Assembly: GCA_028692545.1 (NCBI GenBank)
Contig: JAQUXC010000004.1
Coordinates: forward strand, 630 to 64,629
From: Patescibacteria group bacterium
Lineage (GTDB): Bacteria > Patescibacteriota > Patescibacteriia > UBA1558 > S5-K13
Direction of reading: 5' to 3'
Length of the DNA stretch: 64,000 nt
Part shown: positions 9,828 to 64,000 of the stretch, piece by piece
Layout: each line of letters begins with the position of its first letter
How positions within the stretch are numbered: the first letter of the stretch is position 1
The notes under the pieces: generated by a model
Told to the model about the DNA's origin: nothing
The model's database searches: none
What the model saw: the letters and a program-made list of their open reading frames with translations, nothing else
Position numbers and translations under genes: made by a program

Positions 9828-9936
9828 CTTTTTTGTATTATTAATTATATGGTTAGTTTAACAAATTGTGTATACAAAATCAATTTGAAAATATTGACTT
9901 ATCATTATTTTTATTATATAATAATAAATTCTAAAA

Positions 9937-10671: not shown

Positions 10672-10704
10672 ATAGCAGACCGGAAACGGTCTGCTATTAT
10701 TTTT
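10672..10704 (+). terminator. Intrinsic terminator
   Basis: agcagaccg-gaaa-cggtctgct followed by tatttttat. Confidence 0.6.
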
Positions 10705-14284: not shown

Positions 14285-16948
14285 TTATTTCTTCAATAAG
14301 TCTCTTACTGCTGCTTGAGCTGCTGCAAGACGAGCAATTGGCACTCTAAATGGTGAACAAGATACATAATTAAATCCATTTCTGTGACAGAATTCAACTG
14401 ATTTTGGCTCGCCACCGTGCTCTCCGCAAATTCCAATCTTCAAATCTTTGTTTGCGCTTCTACCTTTTTCTACTGCAATTTTTATTAGCTCGCCAATACC
14501 TTCTTGATCAAGTACTTCAAATGGATCATCTTCAAATATTCCTTGATTTACATATTCTTTCAAGAATTTTCCAGCATCGTCACGAGAAAGTCCTGCACCC
14601 ATTTGAGTCAAATCATTTGTACCAAATGAGAAAAATTCAGCACCAGCTTCAACAATCTTATCTGCTACTAATGCTGCACGAGGAACTTCTATCATTGTTC
14701 CAACTTTGTACTCAATTTCAATTCCAGCTTCTTTTAGCTTATTTTCAACAATATTTACAATCCTATCTTTCAAAATAGAAAATTCTTTTGTAGTTGCAAC
14801 AAGTGGAATCATAATTTCTGGCTTTACATCATGTTTAGCACCACATTTTGGACATTTTGTAGCAACTTCTATTGCTGCTTCTATAATAGCTCTTGTTTGC
14901 ATATCACAAATCTCAGGAAATGTTATTGCCAATCTACATCCACGATGACCAAGCATTGGATTGAATTCATGCAAATCATCAATTTTTGATTTTATAGTTG
15001 CGATATCAACATTCATCTCTCCAGCTAATTCTGCAATATCTTTTTCTTCTCTTGGTAAAAATTCATGAAGCGGTGGATCAAGTAATCTAATTGTAGTATC
15101 ATACTCATCCATTTCATGAAATAATCCAATAAAATCTTGTTTTTGATATGGTAATAATTTTGCAAGTGCTTTTTCTCTTGCCTCTAGATTATCTGACAAA
15201 ATCATTTCTCTTACAGCTTTTATTCTATCACCTTCAAAAAACATATGTTCTGTTCTGCAAAGTCCTATTCCTTTTGCTCCAAATTTTATAGCAATTGAAG
15301 CATCATGTGGAGTATCAGCATTTGCTCTTACATCTAATTTTCTAAATTCATCAGCCCAACTCATAAGGGTTCCAAAAGTTCCGGACAATTCTGGATCTTG
15401 AGTTCCTACTTTATTCAAGTAGACTTTTCCAACTGATCCATCTAGTGAAATAAAATCCCCTTCTTTCAAAATTATATTTTTGCTTTTTATTGTAAGTGTT
15501 TTTGCTTTTTCATCAATTGACAAGTCACTGCATCCTGCTACACAACATTTTCCCATACCACGAGCTACAACTGCAGCATGACTAGTCATTCCACCTCGAG
15601 CTGTAAGAATTCCTTTTGCGCTATGCATTCCATCAATATCTTCAGGCGAAGTTTCTGTTCTTACCAAAATTACATCTAATCCGCTATTTGTTTTTTCAAA
15701 TGCTTCTATTGCAGTAAATACAACTTCACCAACAGCAGCACCAGGAGATGCTGGCAAACCTTGAGCAATTTCTTCTGCATTTTGCAAAGCTATTGGGTCT
15801 AATTGTTTATGTAACAATTGATTTAATTGATTTGGATCAACTCGAAGTATTGCTTCTTCTTTTGTAATGAGTTTTTCTTCAACCAATTCAACAGCAATTC
15901 TTATTGCTGCTGCTCCAGTACGTTTTCCATTTCTAGCTTGCAAAATATATAATTTATTATTTTGAATGGTAAATTCCATATCCTGCATGTCTTTGTAATG
16001 TTTTTCAACTTTATCACAGGTATCAACAAGCTCTTTGTAAATTTCTGGATTTTGAGTTTCTAACTCTGAAACTGGCATTGGAGTTCTAATTCCTGCTACA
16101 ACATCTTCTCCTTGAGCATTCATTAAGTATTCACCATAAAATTTTGCTTCACCTGTGGAAGGATTTCTTGTAAAACACACTCCTGTACCACTATCTTCTC
16201 CAAGATTTCCAAATACCATACTTTGAATATTTACTGCAGTTCCAATCAATCCTCTTATACTATTTAGTTCACGATAACGAATAGCTCTATTATTATTCCA
16301 AGAACTAAATACTGCATTTATTGCCAAAAACAATTGTTCAATAGGATCTTGTGGAAATTCTATTCCTTTTATTCCTTTTATTTTTTCTTTGTATCTTTTT
16401 GTTATTTCTTGTAAATCTTCTGTTGTAAGGTCTGTATCATATTTAGCACCTTTTGTATCTTTTACATTTTCCAAAATATGTTCAAATTCAGAGTGTTCTA
16501 CTTCCATCACAACGTCTCCAAACATTTGTATAAGACGTCTATAAGAATCCCATGCGAATCTAGGATTGTTTGACTTGTTAGAAAGACCAATTACTGATTT
16601 ATCATTTAATCCTAAATTTAGAATTGTATCCATCATTCCAGGCATAGAAGAAGCAGCACCAGATCTCACAGAAACCAAAAGTGGATCAATATCATCACCC
16701 AATGTTTTTCCCATTTTTTTCTGAAGCTCATCTAAATACCTTAAAATTTCACTTCTTACTTCTTGAGTGATTGTTTTATTGCTTTTATAATACAAATCAC
16801 AAACTTCTGTTGTGATTGTAAATCCAGGAGGAACATTTATGCCGAGTGTTGACATTTCAGCTAGGTTTGCACCTTTTCCACCAAGAATTTCTTTCATGTC
16901 CTTATTTCCTTCTTCAAAAGAATAGATATATTTCTTTACATCTGTCAT
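14285..16948 (-). CDS. ppdK: Pyruvate, phosphate dikinase
   Basis: 887 aa; phospho-His motif GGMTSHAAVVARGMG, CRTEHMF, PEP-utilizing C-terminal domain. Confidence 0.95.
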   Translation of the reverse strand: MTDVKKYIYSFEEGNKDMKEILGGKGANLAEMSTLGINVPPGFTITTEVCDLYYKSNKTITQEVRSEILRYLDELQKKMGKTLGDDIDPLLVSVRSGAASSMPGMMDTILNLGLNDKSVIGLSNKSNNPRFAWDSYRRLIQMFGDVVMEVEHSEFEHILENVKDTKGAKYDTDLTTEDLQEITKRYKEKIKGIKGIEFPQDPIEQLFLAINAVFSSWNNNRAIRYRELNSIRGLIGTAVNIQSMVFGNLGEDSGTGVCFTRNPSTGEAKFYGEYLMNAQGEDVVAGIRTPMPVSELETQNPEIYKELVDTCDKVEKHYKDMQDMEFTIQNNKLYILQARNGKRTGAAAIRIAVELVEEKLITKEEAILRVDPNQLNQLLHKQLDPIALQNAEEIAQGLPASPGAAVGEVVFTAIEAFEKTNSGLDVILVRTETSPEDIDGMHSAKGILTARGGMTSHAAVVARGMGKCCVAGCSDLSIDEKAKTLTIKSKNIILKEGDFISLDGSVGKVYLNKVGTQDPELSGTFGTLMSWADEFRKLDVRANADTPHDASIAIKFGAKGIGLCRTEHMFFEGDRIKAVREMILSDNLEAREKALAKLLPYQKQDFIGLFHEMDEYDTTIRLLDPPLHEFLPREEKDIAELAGEMNVDIATIKSKIDDLHEFNPMLGHRGCRLAITFPEICDMQTRAIIEAAIEVATKCPKCGAKHDVKPEIMIPLVATTKEFSILKDRIVNIVENKLKEAGIEIEYKVGTMIEVPRAALVADKIVEAGAEFFSFGTNDLTQMGAGLSRDDAGKFLKEYVNQGIFEDDPFEVLDQEGIGELIKIAVEKGRSANKDLKIGICGEHGGEPKSVEFCHRNGFNYVSCSPFRVPIARLAAAQAAVRDLLKK

Positions 16949-29408: not shown

Positions 29409-31214
29409 TTATTTATGCAAAGCTCCGCCCCACTCTACAACAGTAAATCCTCTTCTTACAGTATTTTTTATAGTTTGAGGTGCAATATTTACATAATTAT
29501 CTAATCCTTCAAAATCCATAAACACTCTTATTATTGTATCTGGTTTTGGTTCTATACTAAGTGGAGCCAATTTATCAAACTGTTCTTGTGGAACAAATGT
29601 TATAAAATAATAATTTTTTTCTTCCATTTTTGGAAGCCAAAATTCTATAAATTCATTATATTCTTTTTCTATAAGACCAAATTGTGATAATTTATCTTTT
29701 AAGAATTGTTCTACATTTGCTTTTGCTACTACAAATCCAGTTTTTGGTCTTTCATAATTCATACCATGACCTTCCCAAAACAAATATGGATAAACCGTTT
29801 TGTCACTATAATTATACAATTCACTATCTTTTGTTGCTCTCACATACCAACCATTATTATAATCTGGTTCTGTTATAGTAAATCCTCCGGTTGGAGCTAC
29901 TTTTACTGATACATTTGTAGTTTTTGTAGGATACAAATATATAACTGGTTTTCCACATTCTACTGCTGGTAAATATTTTGCATCACGAAATTCTATGAAT
30001 TTTCCAAATGGATCTTTCCAAAATATAAGTGGTCTATTGCTCAAAAATTCTTCAAAAGATATTTTCTCATTCTGTGTCTGAGTTTGTGAATTATAGCCAG
30101 GATAATACTGGTCATACATTACTTTTAATATATCCTTAAAATTAGAATCTCTTAACCCATAAATAGAATCACCCGTTGAAGTTTTTCCTATTTCTTTAAT
30201 ATCATTATCACTTATATAATTTACATAATTATAACATCCACTTGCACCGCAACCAGTCATAGCTTTAAAAATATATTCATTTGTATTTTTTGAACTATTA
30301 GTCCATGTAATGTCCAATTTATAAGGGATAGCATGTGCTGGTTGACTGTCACCCTTTTGACCTAAAAATTTTAAGTCAAATGAATATTCTCTTACAGTTC
30401 CGTCATTAGCACGTGCTATAAAACAATTACTGGTTTTATCTTTGTAAATATAATCCTTATCATTATATTTGAAAAGTTTTTCTGGATTATCATAACTCGT
30501 CATTAATTTAAATGGTTCACTATCTGTTTTTTTCAAAACAAAACTTGAATCAGGAATATTTATAGTTTCCAAAACTCCAAAATTGGCAATACTAATATTA
30601 TTATTTACAATAAAAAATTTCTGATAAAATTCATCTAATTGATCAGAATTCTTACCAATAACTATTAAATCATCATTATCTTTTATAACTCTAAGCATTT
30701 GCACTCTTATAGGTCCCTCTGGCTGAAATGTAACAATATACAAATCATTTCCAGTATAACTACCTTCTATAATTTTACCAACCTTGAGTACACTAAAACT
30801 ACTTATAAGATTACTTATATTTTCGTCTGTATTTTTGAAAAATTCATCATCTTTTAAAAAATCCTGCATTTTTTGGTAATTAAATATATCCCATCCAGTT
30901 TTTGAGGCAGGCCATTCACTCCATTCAATTAAAATTTCTCCATCTTTCAATGCAACCTCTTCTGTTGTAGTAGTTGAGTTATCAATATTATTAAGATTTT
31001 CTTCTTGGATTATATTTTCTACTTTCTTTATACTCTCATCAATTCTCTTTTCTTTTACATTTTTGAAAATATAATAAAAAGCACCTGCATTACCAATAAA
31101 TAAAAGAGATACAACAATAATAAGTATATACTTCGTAAAATTATTATTTGGTTTCATTTCTCGATCAGGATCGAGAGATGTATTTTGTTCTAAATTATTT
31201 TCTTCTTCGTACAT
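29409..31214 (-). CDS. Hypothetical membrane-anchored protein (601 aa)
   Basis: Single N-terminal TM (YILIIVVSLLFIGNAGAFYYIF); large extracytoplasmic domain. Confidence 0.55.
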   Translation of the reverse strand: MYEEENNLEQNTSLDPDREMKPNNNFTKYILIIVVSLLFIGNAGAFYYIFKNVKEKRIDESIKKVENIIQEENLNNIDNSTTTTEEVALKDGEILIEWSEWPASKTGWDIFNYQKMQDFLKDDEFFKNTDENISNLISSFSVLKVGKIIEGSYTGNDLYIVTFQPEGPIRVQMLRVIKDNDDLIVIGKNSDQLDEFYQKFFIVNNNISIANFGVLETINIPDSSFVLKKTDSEPFKLMTSYDNPEKLFKYNDKDYIYKDKTSNCFIARANDGTVREYSFDLKFLGQKGDSQPAHAIPYKLDITWTNSSKNTNEYIFKAMTGCGASGCYNYVNYISDNDIKEIGKTSTGDSIYGLRDSNFKDILKVMYDQYYPGYNSQTQTQNEKISFEEFLSNRPLIFWKDPFGKFIEFRDAKYLPAVECGKPVIYLYPTKTTNVSVKVAPTGGFTITEPDYNNGWYVRATKDSELYNYSDKTVYPYLFWEGHGMNYERPKTGFVVAKANVEQFLKDKLSQFGLIEKEYNEFIEFWLPKMEEKNYYFITFVPQEQFDKLAPLSIEPKPDTIIRVFMDFEGLDNYVNIAPQTIKNTVRRGFTVVEWGGALHK

Positions 31215-59206: not shown

Positions 59207-59239
59207 TACAATAAATGAGTCATAAAATCAATCTTACCT

Positions 59240-59268
59240 CACCCCCGGGGTTGCCAACCCCGGGGGTG
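59240..59268. repeat. Perfect GC-rich palindrome cacccccgggg-ttgccaa-ccccgggggtg
   Basis: 29-nt dyad in the divergent promoter region. It has the same cac...ttgccaa...gtg frame as the REP at 63193-63221. Confidence 0.6.
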
Positions 59269-59285
59269 GGAGTTAAAATTAAACT

Positions 59286-60900: not shown

Positions 60901-63126
60901 TTACTTAATATTTGTAGTTGTAGAAGTATTGTTGTATAAATATGAAGCTTTATTAAAATTTTCTTCTGCTTTATCATTCATTCCCTTTTCTTGATATAAT
61001 TTTCCAAGTTCTGAATAATATTTTGGGTTATTTTCATATTTTATAATATTTTCATACAAAAATATTCTCTGATCTGAATATCCATCTTCACCATATAACG
61101 CTATTGCCTTTTTTAAATCACCTAATAAAAATCTATGATTATGTTTTATAGCATTATCTATATTATCCAAGATTATTTTTTTATCAACGCTCATATATGA
61201 ATAAACTTCTCCAATCAACCAATAAGTTGTACCATATTTATCATTATATTTAAGAGCTGTTTGTAAGTCTTCTAATGCTTCATCCATTTTCCCTAGATTG
61301 AGATTTGCCCTAGATCTTAAGAAATAATTATGCAATTTCTGAGGAGATAATTCTATTGAATAATCTATTATTTTTTTTGATTCCTCTAAATTATTTTTAA
61401 ATTCATCACTATCTTGAGAAAACATACTAGCCTTACCCATATAAAGTCTAGCTAAATTAAGTTGCGTATAAGCATCTTTTGAATCCTCCTTTAGATATTC
61501 CTTATTTTTATCTATCAAAAAAATATATATATTATTAAAAATCTCCGCTTTTTCTTGACTATTTATTTTTGACATTGAGCTGGTTAGTATGTCAGTTGTC
61601 ATAGATACAGAATCTTTATTTAAATATCCAGGATAATTAAATAACTCTTCTATATTAGTATATATATCTGTAAAATCTGTACTTTGATGAAAACTTCTTT
61701 GTACAATATAATCTTGCTTTGCAATATTTAAATGATTCATATTCATACCAAGTACAAAATAAAAAACTATTATTCCAGCAAAAGAAATTATTATCCAGTT
61801 TGAATTACTTATTTTTTCCCACAACAATTTTTTATCAAAAACTTCATTATAGCTACTTTCAATATATGCAATTATAAAGAAAAACATTGTTGTAACTGCT
61901 AATGTATCAAATACAAACAAATTTTGTATAAAATAAGCTACTACTATAACTGCAAGAAATATAGAAAATATTTTTTCATCTTCATCTTGTTGAGTTTTAT
62001 GAATTTTAAAAAGATAATAAAAAAGAATAACAAATATTGATAAATAAGAAAGAATACCAAATATTCCAGTAGCTACCAAAGTTTCTACAACCATATTATG
62101 AGCCCTATCAAACCATACTTCAGTAGGGGCTATATTGTAATAATCAGCCTGAAAATATTTATCAAAAGCATAACCATAATTTTCCATTCCATAACCAAAA
62201 ATAGGTCTTTCTTTGAATGCTTGCCATCCTCCATTCCATGATATAAGTCTAGTTCTAACGGTACCTTCAGCAAAAGAAATATTAACAATTCTTTTTGTAA
62301 TTACATTATTTTTTACCCAATCAGCATCTTTGTTTGCAAAAGCTAATCCAAAAAATGTAATAATAGATAGCAAAAATACAATAAGTGAAATCTTTAAAAC
62401 TTTTGAACTACCTCTAAAAATAAAATATATTCCCAAAATCAATATAGCAGCCATTAAACCAACTTGAGCACCTCTAGTTTGAGTCAAAAACATAGCAGGA
62501 AGTTGTATAAATATATGAGTAGCAAAAATCAATTTAAAGTACCATTCTTTTTTTGTGACTAATAAATATAAAGACAACAAAACTCCCAAAATAAGAAGTC
62601 CTGCTGTATATGAAACATTACCCAAAACACTCTGAATCATTTGACCACCAGTTTGAAATACAAAGGACACATTCCATCTTTGTAAATATCCATAAAAAGC
62701 AATATAAGAGCAAAATATAAGTGAAACATTCAAAAATACAAACCACTCTTTTTTTGTTTTTAAAAAATTACTAAGCACTATAAAAAATAAAACCAAATGA
62801 AGCCATGTATTTATACCCCACATTCTTTCAAGGTCTCCAACAAATGATAGCTTTGGATTTAGTCCAAATATAGCTGTAATAATAGTTATAAATGTAAAAA
62901 TAATAATTGATAAAAGTAAAATGGATTTTTTTGGTCTATATTTTGGATAATATAAAGCTAATACAAGATAAAAAAATGACAATAACTCAACTAATATTCT
63001 AAATGGTATTGCTTTTGATGTAATATATGGAAATATCCATTCCCTAAATATCAAAGTACAACTTATAAAAACACCTACAATAAGTATGTTTATCACAATT
63101 CTTAAGTTCTTTTCTAAATTATTCAT
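60901..63126 (-). CDS. O-antigen ligase/polymerase-like (Wzy_C) polytopic membrane protein with C-terminal TPR repeats
   Basis: More than 10 TM segments, a TQTRGAQVG loop region, and TPR-like YYSELGKLYQEKGMNDKAEENF at the C-terminus. Confidence 0.65.
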   Translation of the reverse strand: MNNLEKNLRIVINILIVGVFISCTLIFREWIFPYITSKAIPFRILVELLSFFYLVLALYYPKYRPKKSILLLSIIIFTFITIITAIFGLNPKLSFVGDLERMWGINTWLHLVLFFIVLSNFLKTKKEWFVFLNVSLIFCSYIAFYGYLQRWNVSFVFQTGGQMIQSVLGNVSYTAGLLILGVLLSLYLLVTKKEWYFKLIFATHIFIQLPAMFLTQTRGAQVGLMAAILILGIYFIFRGSSKVLKISLIVFLLSIITFFGLAFANKDADWVKNNVITKRIVNISFAEGTVRTRLISWNGGWQAFKERPIFGYGMENYGYAFDKYFQADYYNIAPTEVWFDRAHNMVVETLVATGIFGILSYLSIFVILFYYLFKIHKTQQDEDEKIFSIFLAVIVVAYFIQNLFVFDTLAVTTMFFFIIAYIESSYNEVFDKKLLWEKISNSNWIIISFAGIIVFYFVLGMNMNHLNIAKQDYIVQRSFHQSTDFTDIYTNIEELFNYPGYLNKDSVSMTTDILTSSMSKINSQEKAEIFNNIYIFLIDKNKEYLKEDSKDAYTQLNLARLYMGKASMFSQDSDEFKNNLEESKKIIDYSIELSPQKLHNYFLRSRANLNLGKMDEALEDLQTALKYNDKYGTTYWLIGEVYSYMSVDKKIILDNIDNAIKHNHRFLLGDLKKAIALYGEDGYSDQRIFLYENIIKYENNPKYYSELGKLYQEKGMNDKAEENFNKASYLYNNTSTTTNIK

Positions 63127-63192
63127 TTATTTTTCTATAATTATTAACTTATAAATATTCTATAATATATAATCTAAATAGGCAATTCTCTC

Positions 63193-63221
63193 CACGTCCG
63201 ACGTTGCCAACGTCGGACGTG
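63193..63221. repeat. REP-like palindrome cacgtccgacgttg-c-caacgtcggacgtg (5' flank of the RAYT gene)
   Basis: 14-bp perfect arms; seen directly. Confidence 0.7.
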
Positions 63222-63317
63222 TGGTATATAGTATTGACTTTGATATATTCTGAAGTAAAATATAAACATGGGTCGCAAAAGCGATCTTTTTGTTTTAATA
63301 AATAAAGAAAAGCGATT

Positions 63318-63926
63318 ATGATAAGGAATATATTATCAAACAATATTTATCATGTTTATAATAGAGGAACTGAAAAAAGAAGAATTTTTTATAATCAAAG
63401 GGATTATAATTATTTTTTGAGTAGAATGTTTTTTTATAAAGATCAGTTTAAAGTAAAAATTTTATCTTATGCAATATTACCAAACCATTTTCATTTTTTA
63501 CTAGAAGAACCAACGTCGGACGTTGTTAACGTCCGACGTTGCAGTTACAAACCAAATACTAATCAATATCATGGATCAAAAATATCAAAGTTTATATCTA
63601 TTTTATTAAATTCTTATACAAAATATTTCAATAATAGACGAGAGCATTCTGGGAGAATTTTTCAAGGACCATTTAAATCTAAACTTATAAGTAGTGATAC
63701 TTATTTGCAAACAGTTTTTGTTTATGTAAATTTAAATCCAATAAAGCATGGGGTTGTAAATAATATAAATGACTGGCTTTATACTTCCCATCATTATTTT
63801 TCAGATAAATTTAATTCTGGAATAGTAGATAGTAATGATTTTATAGATAAAACTATCTATAAATCTATTATCAAAAATTATAAAGATAAAATAGAAAATA
63901 ATGACGTAGATTTGGAATTTGATTAG
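63318..63926 (+). CDS. IS200-like/RAYT-family Y1 transposase flanked by REP-like palindromes
   Basis: HuH motif LPNHFHFLL; GRIFQGPFKSKLISSDTYL...YVNLNPIKHG...W block typical of COG1943. Confidence 0.7.
   Translation: MIRNILSNNIYHVYNRGTEKRRIFYNQRDYNYFLSRMFFYKDQFKVKILSYAILPNHFHFLLEEPTSDVVNVRRCSYKPNTNQYHGSKISKFISILLNSYTKYFNNRREHSGRIFQGPFKSKLISSDTYLQTVFVYVNLNPIKHGVVNNINDWLYTSHHYFSDKFNSGIVDSNDFIDKTIYKSIIKNYKDKIENNDVDLEFD
63511..63541. repeat. REP-like palindrome inside the RAYT ORF (caacgtcggacgtt-gtt-aacgtccgacgttg)
   Basis: Same arms as the flanking copies; translated in frame as PTSDVVNVRRCS immediately after the HuH motif. Confidence 0.7.
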
Positions 63927-63928
63927 TC

Positions 63929-63962
63929 ACCAACGTCCGACGTTGGCAACGTCGGACGTGGA
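63929..63962. repeat. REP-like palindrome 3' of the RAYT gene (acgtccgacgttg-g-caacgtcggacgt)
   Basis: Begins 3 nt after the RAYT stop codon. Confidence 0.65.
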
Positions 63963-64000
63963 AATCCCCCAAAAAAACAAAATCTCCCACCCCGCAAAGC

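Follow-up and report, generated by a model that had tools for sequence, protein, structure and literature searches.

We examined the right end of a 64-kb stretch of contig from a Patescibacteria metagenome-assembled genome (27% GC; this whole stretch is called the window below), where three GC-rich palindromes of 29-31 nt (63193-63221, 63511-63541 and 63931-63961) accompany a gene for a RAYT-like enzyme, that is, a tyrosine transposase of the kind associated with repetitive extragenic palindromes (REPs). The first and third palindromes flank the gene, and the second lies inside its open reading frame (ORF), in frame. All three had been placed at these positions by the original prediction, with slightly wider bounds for the third (63929-63962). 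The parts of the unit are as follows.

63191..63223, no strand assigned: upstream repeat doublet (REP), with half-sites ACGTCCGACGT at 63194-63204 and ACGTCGGACGT at 63210-63220, containing the 14-bp-arm palindrome 63193-63221
63318..63926, plus strand: RAYT-type Y1/HuH transposase gene, an intact ORF of 202 aa, with the HuH motif (H57/H59) at 63486-63494 and Y136 at 63723-63725
63511..63541, no strand assigned: internal in-frame repeat doublet, with half-sites at 63513-63523 and 63529-63539, encoding residues 65-75 (PTSDVVNVRRC)
63929..63962, no strand assigned: downstream repeat doublet, with half-sites at 63933-63943 and 63949-63959, beginning 4-5 nt past the stop codon

The outer palindromes are exact inverted copies of each other over 30 nt (100% complementary, 63191-63220 against 63933-63962). 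The gene is immediately bracketed by inverted GC-rich palindromes, which is the layout of a REPtron, and most relatives of the locus have the same arrangement. The upstream palindrome reads CACGTCCGACGTTG-C-CAACGTCGGACGTG and the internal one CAACGTCGGACGTT-GTT-AACGTCCGACGTTG; every one of the three is made of two copies of a near-self-complementary 11-mer, ACGTCSGACGT, at a spacing of 16 nt. This half-site occurs six times in the window, always within the three palindromes, where shuffled sequence gives an expectation of 0.03 and none of 100 shuffles reached six. The palindromes at the RAYT locus are not a product of chance. Folded as single-stranded DNA (ssDNA), they reach -15.5 to -17.7 kcal/mol (z -4.6 to -7.4), and the internal one, folded as mRNA, reaches -23 kcal/mol. 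An Rfam search of positions 62900-64000 returned no family, even at E <= 1.

Alignment of the encoded protein to E. coli TnpA-REP (4ER8), whose active-site residues H59/H61, Y115, N119 and H123 have been described (PMC3479197), matches these to H57/H59, Y136, N140 and H144, with Y136 as the catalytic residue and N140 and H144 as metal ligands. H57, H59, Y136, N140 and H144 are invariant across 52 relatives. The same alignment bears out the claim that the middle palindrome lies in frame between the HuH motif and the Tyr block (Y136/N140/H144). With a profile of the 52 relatives, 4ER8 was the only PDB sequence match, and it is also the best structural match of the AlphaFold (AF2) model (predicted local distance difference test, pLDDT, 84), ahead of the ISDra2 and IS608 transposases. 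REP_Tyr_transpos (NF047646) is the sole NCBIfam match, at 64.3 bits (70.1 with the loop removed; relatives score 49-68), and JGI names the homologs RayT. To judge from these profile scores, the protein is a divergent RAYT branch and not an equivalog. The NCBIfam and Pfam scores, the 4ER8 match and the exact inverted flanks support the claim that the palindromes bracket a RAYT-kind Y1/HuH gene. This claim was to be given up only if the palindrome were confined to this locus and the protein also failed in a hidden Markov model (HMM) search; both were needed, and the HMM failure did not occur.

The internal repeat sits in codons 65-75. These belong to a loop (residues 64-87) that links the HuH strand to the helix after it and is predicted with low confidence. 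The palindrome-encoded part is modeled with a pLDDT below 50, and its E. coli counterpart in the 4ER8 alignment reads TLPEGDDDFSS. Once the palindrome-encoded loop is cut out, the Pfam Y1_Tnp match (labeled 'Transposase IS200 like') rises from 22.1 to 34.2 bits, past the cut-off of 23. Relatives with long inserts lack a Pfam annotation because the insert pulls their Y1_Tnp score under this threshold, and insert-bearing proteins are for that reason annotated as hypothetical. Outside the loop, the ratio of nonsynonymous to synonymous substitution (dN/dS) between the window gene and its ortholog, L212, is 0.20; the RAYT enzyme is under purifying selection.

In an alignment of the 52 nearest homologs, which have 46-75% identity and all come from uncultured Patescibacteria-like sources, the segment that follows 'LLxEP' proved strongly length-variable. 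DNA was examined for 13 independent loci of this subclade: the window, L004, L212, L122, L125, L127, L130, L132, L133, L216, L218, L213 and L214. All 13 carry an in-frame repeat 7-20 codons past the HuH motif, mostly as a doublet and at times as one half-site, and in each its core is the core of that locus's own upstream (about -50 to -180) and/or downstream (+2 to +25) repeats. Equivalents of the upstream repeat are present in 12 of the 13 loci, and in 11 a downstream repeat lies 2-25 nt beyond the stop codon. The cores are listed here by locus.

ACGTCSGACGT: window and L004
ACCTCSGAGGT: L212
ACCCTSAGGGT: L122
AAGGGCWGCCCTT: L125
ACCTCGAAGGT: L127
ACCYCGAGGGT: L130
ACCCGNCGGGT: L132, L133, L216 and L218
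ACCTSCSAGGT: L213
ACCCCTNGGGGT: L214

When the 10-mers of each insert were counted in the flanks of every locus (a 13x13 matrix), the diagonal averaged 16.2 and the off-diagonal 0.8, with the off-diagonal signal limited to pairs of loci of one repeat family. L213, at 186 aa the 'insert-less' member, still has a single in-frame half-site, and this is identical to its own flanks. Internal copies are degenerate or cut to one half-site in L125, L213, L214 and L216. A strict hairpin filter (at least 9-10 pairs, GC of at least 0.5) misses degenerate or direct-oriented internal repeats (L125, L127, L130) as well as the in-ORF repeats of distant relatives, and base-level reading together with k-mer and longest-common-substring tests was used to detect repeats below that filter. 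The DNA core that the window and L004 have in common is translated in different frames, giving the peptide PTSDVVNVRRC in the former and QRPTFLTSDVG in the latter. The peptide is not conserved across loci, and it is therefore the nucleic-acid sequence that is kept. A peptide signature, TxxV / [DHN][PLV]x[GR], does recur in 45 of the 52 subclade loops, a loose motif that lends little weight. As far as sequences can tell, gene and repeat evolve together: the internal copy matches the flanks of its own genome even where the repeat sequence has changed. The original prediction had asked whether the insert is absent from relatives. It is not peculiar to the window gene: every close relative among those examined has its counterpart, an in-frame repeat of locus-specific sequence. 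Absence at this site holds only for distant relatives (30-40% identity), some of which carry a repeat elsewhere in the ORF.

The closest relative, L212 (75% amino acid identity), is syntenic with the window and, with the same Wzy-type gene upstream in both and DNA that is 86% identical, is an ortholog. Five of its half-sites are visible (a pair upstream, a pair inside the ORF and, before the contig breaks off, a single one downstream), and all read ACCTCSGAGGT in place of the ACGTCSGACGT of the window; each carries the identical paired change, G3->C with C9->G, which preserves self-complementarity. The centre and length of the doublet are altered as well, the internal doublet being 3 nt longer, and this indicates cassette-like replacement. 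Independent point mutation at five or more half-sites was considered and is not credible, given the same paired change each time. The copies must have been overwritten, with one another or a shared donor as the source. The window itself contains a second variant of the repeat.

59238..59270, no strand assigned: second repeat variant, CAC-CCCCGGG-GTTGCCAAC-CCCGGGG-GTG, half-site ACCCCSGGGGT, in full CACCCCCGGGGTTGCCAACCCCGGGGGTG

This variant is intergenic, between divergent epimerase and glycosyltransferase genes 4 kb from the RAYT unit. It shares the scaffold of the RAYT-linked repeat and differs only in paired, symmetry-preserving changes of the core; another RAYT, encoded at some other place in the genome, may act on it, or it may survive from a former repeat type.

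More distant relatives, sampled as 80 metagenomic loci (about 26-52% identity, mostly about 215 aa), mostly have the classical REPtron layout, with a hairpin just upstream, another just downstream and none after the HuH motif. Exact matches of at least 14 nt between an ORF and its own flanks occur at 24 of 88 unique loci and in 4 of 352 mismatched pairs; with the threshold raised to 16 nt, the counts are 19/88 and 0/352. Hairpins that seemed to lie inside distant ORFs ahead of the HuH motif were left out of the counts, these ORFs having been over-extended upstream. In-ORF repeats occur at the following sites.

Site 1: 7-20 codons after the HuH motif, in the subclade of the window
Site 2: 69-80 codons after the HuH motif, in the loop that follows the catalytic-Tyr helix, in L151, L156, L157, L165, L178 and L182 (for example, 'YVNLND-KIPLGGLTAKL-TKSSW')
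Site 3: the C-terminal tail, in L141, L147, L134 and others

Judged by these matches, in-ORF cognate repeats are recurrent in this RAYT family, and the post-HuH site is the hallmark of the subclade to which the window belongs. In L151 and L156, the insert replaces the region expected to hold the metal ligand equivalent to H123 (NLND-KIPLGGLTAKL), which raises the question whether those enzymes would remain active.

We consider it probable that the locus belongs to a divergent lineage of RAYTs in Patescibacteria and forms a REPtron-like unit, with an in-frame cognate repeat accommodated in a tolerated loop and with its copies kept identical by copy-replacement. The presumed cognate repeat is a tandem doublet of two 15-16-nt self-complementary units that occupies three fixed places: by the promoter, in frame in the loop just past the HuH strand, and just past the stop codon. 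The internal copy would act as an element at the level of nucleic acid, and the peptide it encodes would be a tolerated, probably disordered loop. Its match to the flanking copies would be maintained by concerted evolution, in which every copy at the locus is subject to copy-replacement, such that a change of the repeat core would bring a change at all three positions together. The agent would most probably be the RAYT's own hairpin-directed cleavage and strand transfer, preferring repeats near its gene; short-patch gene conversion would be an alternative homogenizer. Recognition of these repeats by the RAYT is suggested by the behavior of the family and by the co-variation described above; RAYT-driven homogenization and the reason why the internal copy is retained are likewise inferred.

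Several points weigh against this model. No further copy of the repeat is present in the other 62.6 kb of the window, and its status as a dispersed repeat is unproven for this genome. The 5' GTAG tag of classical REPs is absent: GTAG or CTAC falls within 14 nt of 2 of 34 repeat copies in 11 loci, which is chance level, and of none in the window. The NF047646 score, at 64-70, stays below the curated cut-off of 80. Action of the RAYT on the repeats is presumed from its family, and short-patch gene conversion instead of RAYT activity could homogenize the copies. Finally, at least one in-frame half-site is kept at all 13 loci for which DNA was read, and the repeat-encoded peptide signature appears in 45/52 proteins; a passive passenger should sometimes be lost, and near-universal retention therefore points towards a selected function. 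Given the failed GTAG tag and HMM cut-off and the dispersal left unproven in this genome, the protein is best described as RAYT-like rather than as a certified member.

The retention of the internal repeat is also the first argument for a different account, one we hold to be possible and favor clearly less than copy-replacement in a tolerated loop, namely that selection keeps the internal repeat as a cis-regulatory site. The copy in the RAYT gene would be bound by the RAYT itself, or by some other factor that binds the repeat, and RAYT expression would thereby be repressed or limited (autoregulation or self-limitation). The bound form would be either the mRNA hairpin of -23 kcal/mol or an extruded DNA hairpin of the non-template strand, acting with the promoter-adjacent upstream copy. 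This account is not exclusive of the REPtron-like model as to anatomy, and, if true, would give a reason why the internal copy has to stay in line with the specificity of the enzyme. It draws on the way the internal copy follows specificity switches (window and L212), on the strength of the mRNA hairpin, on the independent embedding of cognate repeats at two other ORF sites in other subclades, and on the following features upstream of the gene.

63234..63261, plus strand: promoter-like site TTGACT-16-TAAAAT, directly 3' of the upstream repeat; a consensus match, with a presumed function
63204-63232, plus strand: overlapping promoter candidate TTGCCA-17-TATAGT, with the repeat centre as its -35
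63270..63292, plus strand: terminator-like leader hairpin (GGGTCGC-AAAA-GCGATCT, then TTTTT), located 3' of the promoter-like site and 5' of the start codon

The centre of the upstream repeat, GTTGCCAAC, looks like a -35 box. In 13/13 subclade loci, a TTGAC[AT] box stands either inside the upstream repeat or after it, and TTGACA forms the very centre of the repeat in L130 and L125. A promoter scan of the region found nine candidates where 7.3 were expected, which is not significant alone, and the promoter argument uses only the positional conservation of TTGAC[AT] across loci. Within the leader (63270-63317), GAAAAGCGATT stands between the hairpin and the ATG. Relatives have a hairpin starting with GGTCG and a T-run at the corresponding place in their leaders, with differing 3' partners; in one group of loci, the GGTCG hairpin directly abuts the ATG, without an obvious Shine-Dalgarno sequence. 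The hairpin is a candidate attenuator, insulator or 5' stabilizer, and its terminator-like form suggests tight control of expression.

All of this support for a cis-regulatory site is indirect, and HuH enzymes are known as binders of ssDNA hairpins, not of mRNA. Some internal copies are degenerate or reduced to a single half-site (L125, L213, L214 and L216). Moreover, embedding at three sites, including trivial C-terminal overlaps, together with an insert of the same kind in a PrmC gene (described below), fits insertion pressure plus tolerance equally well. We also noted that the internal palindrome (63511-63541), read on the minus strand and followed there by GGTTCTTC (the complement of the conserved E-E-P codons), has an intrinsic-terminator-like score; such a site could halt antisense transcription into the RAYT gene.

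That the unit might instead be an autonomous insertion sequence (IS) of the IS200/IS605 type, with the flanking palindromes as left-end and right-end hairpins and the internal one incidental, seems unlikely to us. The fold and motifs are common to the TnpA proteins of IS200, IS608 and ISDra2, the Pfam family is named for IS200, the hairpins lie just outside the ORF, and the terminator-like leader hairpin is one that we take to resemble that of IS200. The contig ends 152 nt past the RAYT stop codon, and several relatives' contigs likewise break beside the RAYT gene, which suggests repeat-induced or heterogeneity-induced assembly breaks. However, TnpA-REP, and not IS200 TnpA, is the best match in sequence, HMM and fold, the protein is 202 aa long with a C-terminal extension, and the flanking copies are inverted relative to each other and not on the same strand. 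The loci are also syntenic across lineages at 50-75% protein identity, which suggests vertical inheritance at a fixed site. For example, L125 and L216 share about 20 kb of synteny (HSP70, DnaJ, a PDZ protein and sigma-70 on one side of the RAYT, and DUF5667, a 1,200-aa protein and Wzy on the other). Relative to these conserved neighbors the RAYT cassette is in opposite orientation in the two, as expected from recombination between inverted flanking repeats. Small lineage-specific ORFs (104 aa and 171 aa) lie beside this cassette. There was one RAYT copy per contig among the loci examined, and no tnpB neighbor in any of them. From the synteny of the window with L212 and of L125 with L216, the RAYT loci look vertically inherited and domesticated-like.

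Less likely again is that the palindromes are sites for some other dimeric protein that binds double-stranded DNA, a regulator or a component of a restriction-modification system, and lie near a transposase gene by coincidence. Each half-site is itself palindromic over 11-15 bp around an S or W base, as is typical of dimer-binding or type II sites, and the half-sites presumably resemble restriction sites such as GACGTC, CTCGAG and CCTNAGG. Coincidence is difficult to reconcile with repeats that accompany the RAYT gene in all 13 subclade loci and many distant relatives, in varied genomic contexts, that change in step with the gene, and that are nearly absent elsewhere in the loci. We reject as least credible of all the notion of a decaying pseudogene whose internal palindrome came from a selfish insertion, recent and private to the lineage, or from faulty assembly: in-frame palindromic insertions are known from Rickettsia palindromic elements (RPEs) and intragenic REPs (PMC3733652), but here the same arrangement is found in independent assemblies (NCBI, JGI, ENA, Logan), the position is conserved across proteins only 46-75% identical, the internal copy co-varies with its flanks, and the frame is intact with invariant catalytic residues and a dN/dS of 0.20.

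Beyond the unit itself, a Wzy_C/TPR gene and a series of glycosyltransferase genes adjoin it; the original prediction had set it at the edge of a glycan island. A further hairpin, TCTCCCACCCCGCAAAGCGGGATGGGAGA, lies at 63983-64000 of the window and continues to about 64011 in the contig (L001 10666-10694); its minus strand continues into a T-run, and it probably serves as a terminator for a convergent gene. The hairpin scan also returned two unrelated GC-containing hairpins, ATAGCAGACCGGAAACGGTCTGCTAT and CATTTCTCGATCAGGATCGAGAGATG, at 10672-10697 and 31155-31180.

In the flanks of relatives there is about one dispersed repeat site per 35 kb. At L122, a unit of about 60 nt upstream of the RAYT, organized as REP-spacer-REP, is duplicated 6.8 kb away (16785-16845 and 9865-9925), where it adjoins a cluster resembling a diversity-generating retroelement (bAvd and reverse transcriptase). 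This duplication is dispersal of the kind seen for REPINs, the hairpin-forming REP doublets. At L129 (2293-2340), three 16-nt units, 48 nt in all, stand in frame inside a PrmC/HemK methyltransferase gene and encode ATFEVANLRGCQPSRL, just ahead of the ILDIGCG motif that binds S-adenosylmethionine. A search of contigs with the doublet pattern ACGTCSGACGT-N3-9-ACGTCSGACGT gave at least 120 matches, most of them (ACGTCGG)n heptamer tandem repeats in GC-rich genomes; among the matches listed, L004 alone was informative, and L059 carries a similar dispersed repeat. Other Patescibacteria genomes (about 44% GC; L022, L047, L058, L070, L097, L120, L203 and others) have longer single hairpins with the apex GACGTCSGACGTC, for example ACGTCCGACGTCCACTTGGACGTCGGACGT, and this core motif recurs among repeats of the candidate phyla radiation.

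These observations bear on how RAYTs and REPs stay matched over the long term, and on how REPs are copied. They provide direct evidence of concerted repeat rewriting at a REPtron, including a clean specificity switch between two orthologous loci, and a natural panel of enzyme and repeat pairs whose 11-nt cores differ by one or two compensatory pairs, which suits them to the biochemistry of specificity. They also offer a testable candidate for self-regulation of a transposase through an intragenic target site. More tentatively, the in-ORF repeat could be a selected self-recognition module that, with the promoter-adjacent copy, gives autoregulation or self-limitation, and a shift in specificity would then rewrite the cassette at all three positions. 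If this were true, the embedding of cognate repeats at three ORF hot spots would be a general, convergent feature of Patescibacteria RAYTs, and a dozen or more natural enzyme and repeat pairs that differ by simple paired base changes would form a series from which to read the code of HuH repeat recognition.

REPtrons, RAYTs and REPINs are established (PMC3479197, PMC8266576, PMC3116915, PMC5581495), and host genes are known to carry RPEs and intragenic REPs in frame (PMC3733652). The literature searched holds intragenic REPs in host genes and no REP inside a RAYT ORF, an absence there that does not prove novelty; it likewise holds no lock-step evolution of ORF and flank repeats and no REP/RAYT system in Patescibacteria. 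The published RAYT and REPIN surveys covered concern extragenic flanks only, with no mention of repeats inside the RAYT ORF.

The closest likeness is to REPtrons such as that of E. coli TnpA-REP (4ER8). The locus in the window shares with them the Y1/HuH enzyme with its HuH, Tyr and N/H metal ligands, for which 4ER8 is the best sequence, HMM and fold match, as well as inverted GC-rich palindromes on both sides of a gene that is apparently present once and transmitted vertically. The Marinomonas REPtrons Ma and Mb have repeats concentrated beside the gene (PMC8266576), as at the window locus. The locus differs from REPtrons in its third cognate copy, in frame in the ORF and co-varying with the flanks, and in a repeat that is a tandem doublet of self-complementary 15-16-nt units without the GTAG tag. 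It also differs in its very low dispersal (none in 62.6 kb), its Patescibacteria host of 27% GC, and an NCBIfam score under the equivalog cut-off. With the REPIN-RAYT systems of Bertels and Rainey (PMC3116915, PMC5581495) it shares an apparently single-copy RAYT with flanking repeats, doublets and, it seems, long-term vertical co-inheritance, and the duplicated REP-spacer-REP unit of L122 is similar. REPINs are extragenic and form populations of tens to hundreds in a genome (PMC3116915, PMC5581495), whereas here copies are few and one is coding.

With the TnpA proteins of IS200/IS605 elements (IS608, ISDra2, IS200), the common ground is the catalytic fold, presumably also an ssDNA chemistry directed by hairpins, the placing of hairpins immediately beyond the ORF, and a leader hairpin of terminator-like form. 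Such elements have multiple identical copies, same-strand ends and often a tnpB partner; the loci examined here are syntenic copies, one per contig, with inverted ends and no tnpB, no mobility of the gene is seen, the protein is longer, and the structural match is weaker than that to TnpA-REP.

RPEs were reportedly the subject of work by Ogata et al. in 2000. The locus in the window resembles a coding insert of this type in that its repeat fills codons 65-75 in frame, lies in a loop with a pLDDT below 50, and is absent at that site in relatives of 30-40% identity. In-frame palindromic repeats in coding genes, tolerated as extra loops, are likewise common to intragenic REPs and RPEs (PMC3733652), and the PrmC insert of L129 is exactly such a case. 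Those repeats decorate unrelated host genes and are regarded as neutral; here, in contrast, the repeat lies in the gene of its own presumed transposase, at a site conserved throughout the subclade and with a sequence kept in step with the flanks.

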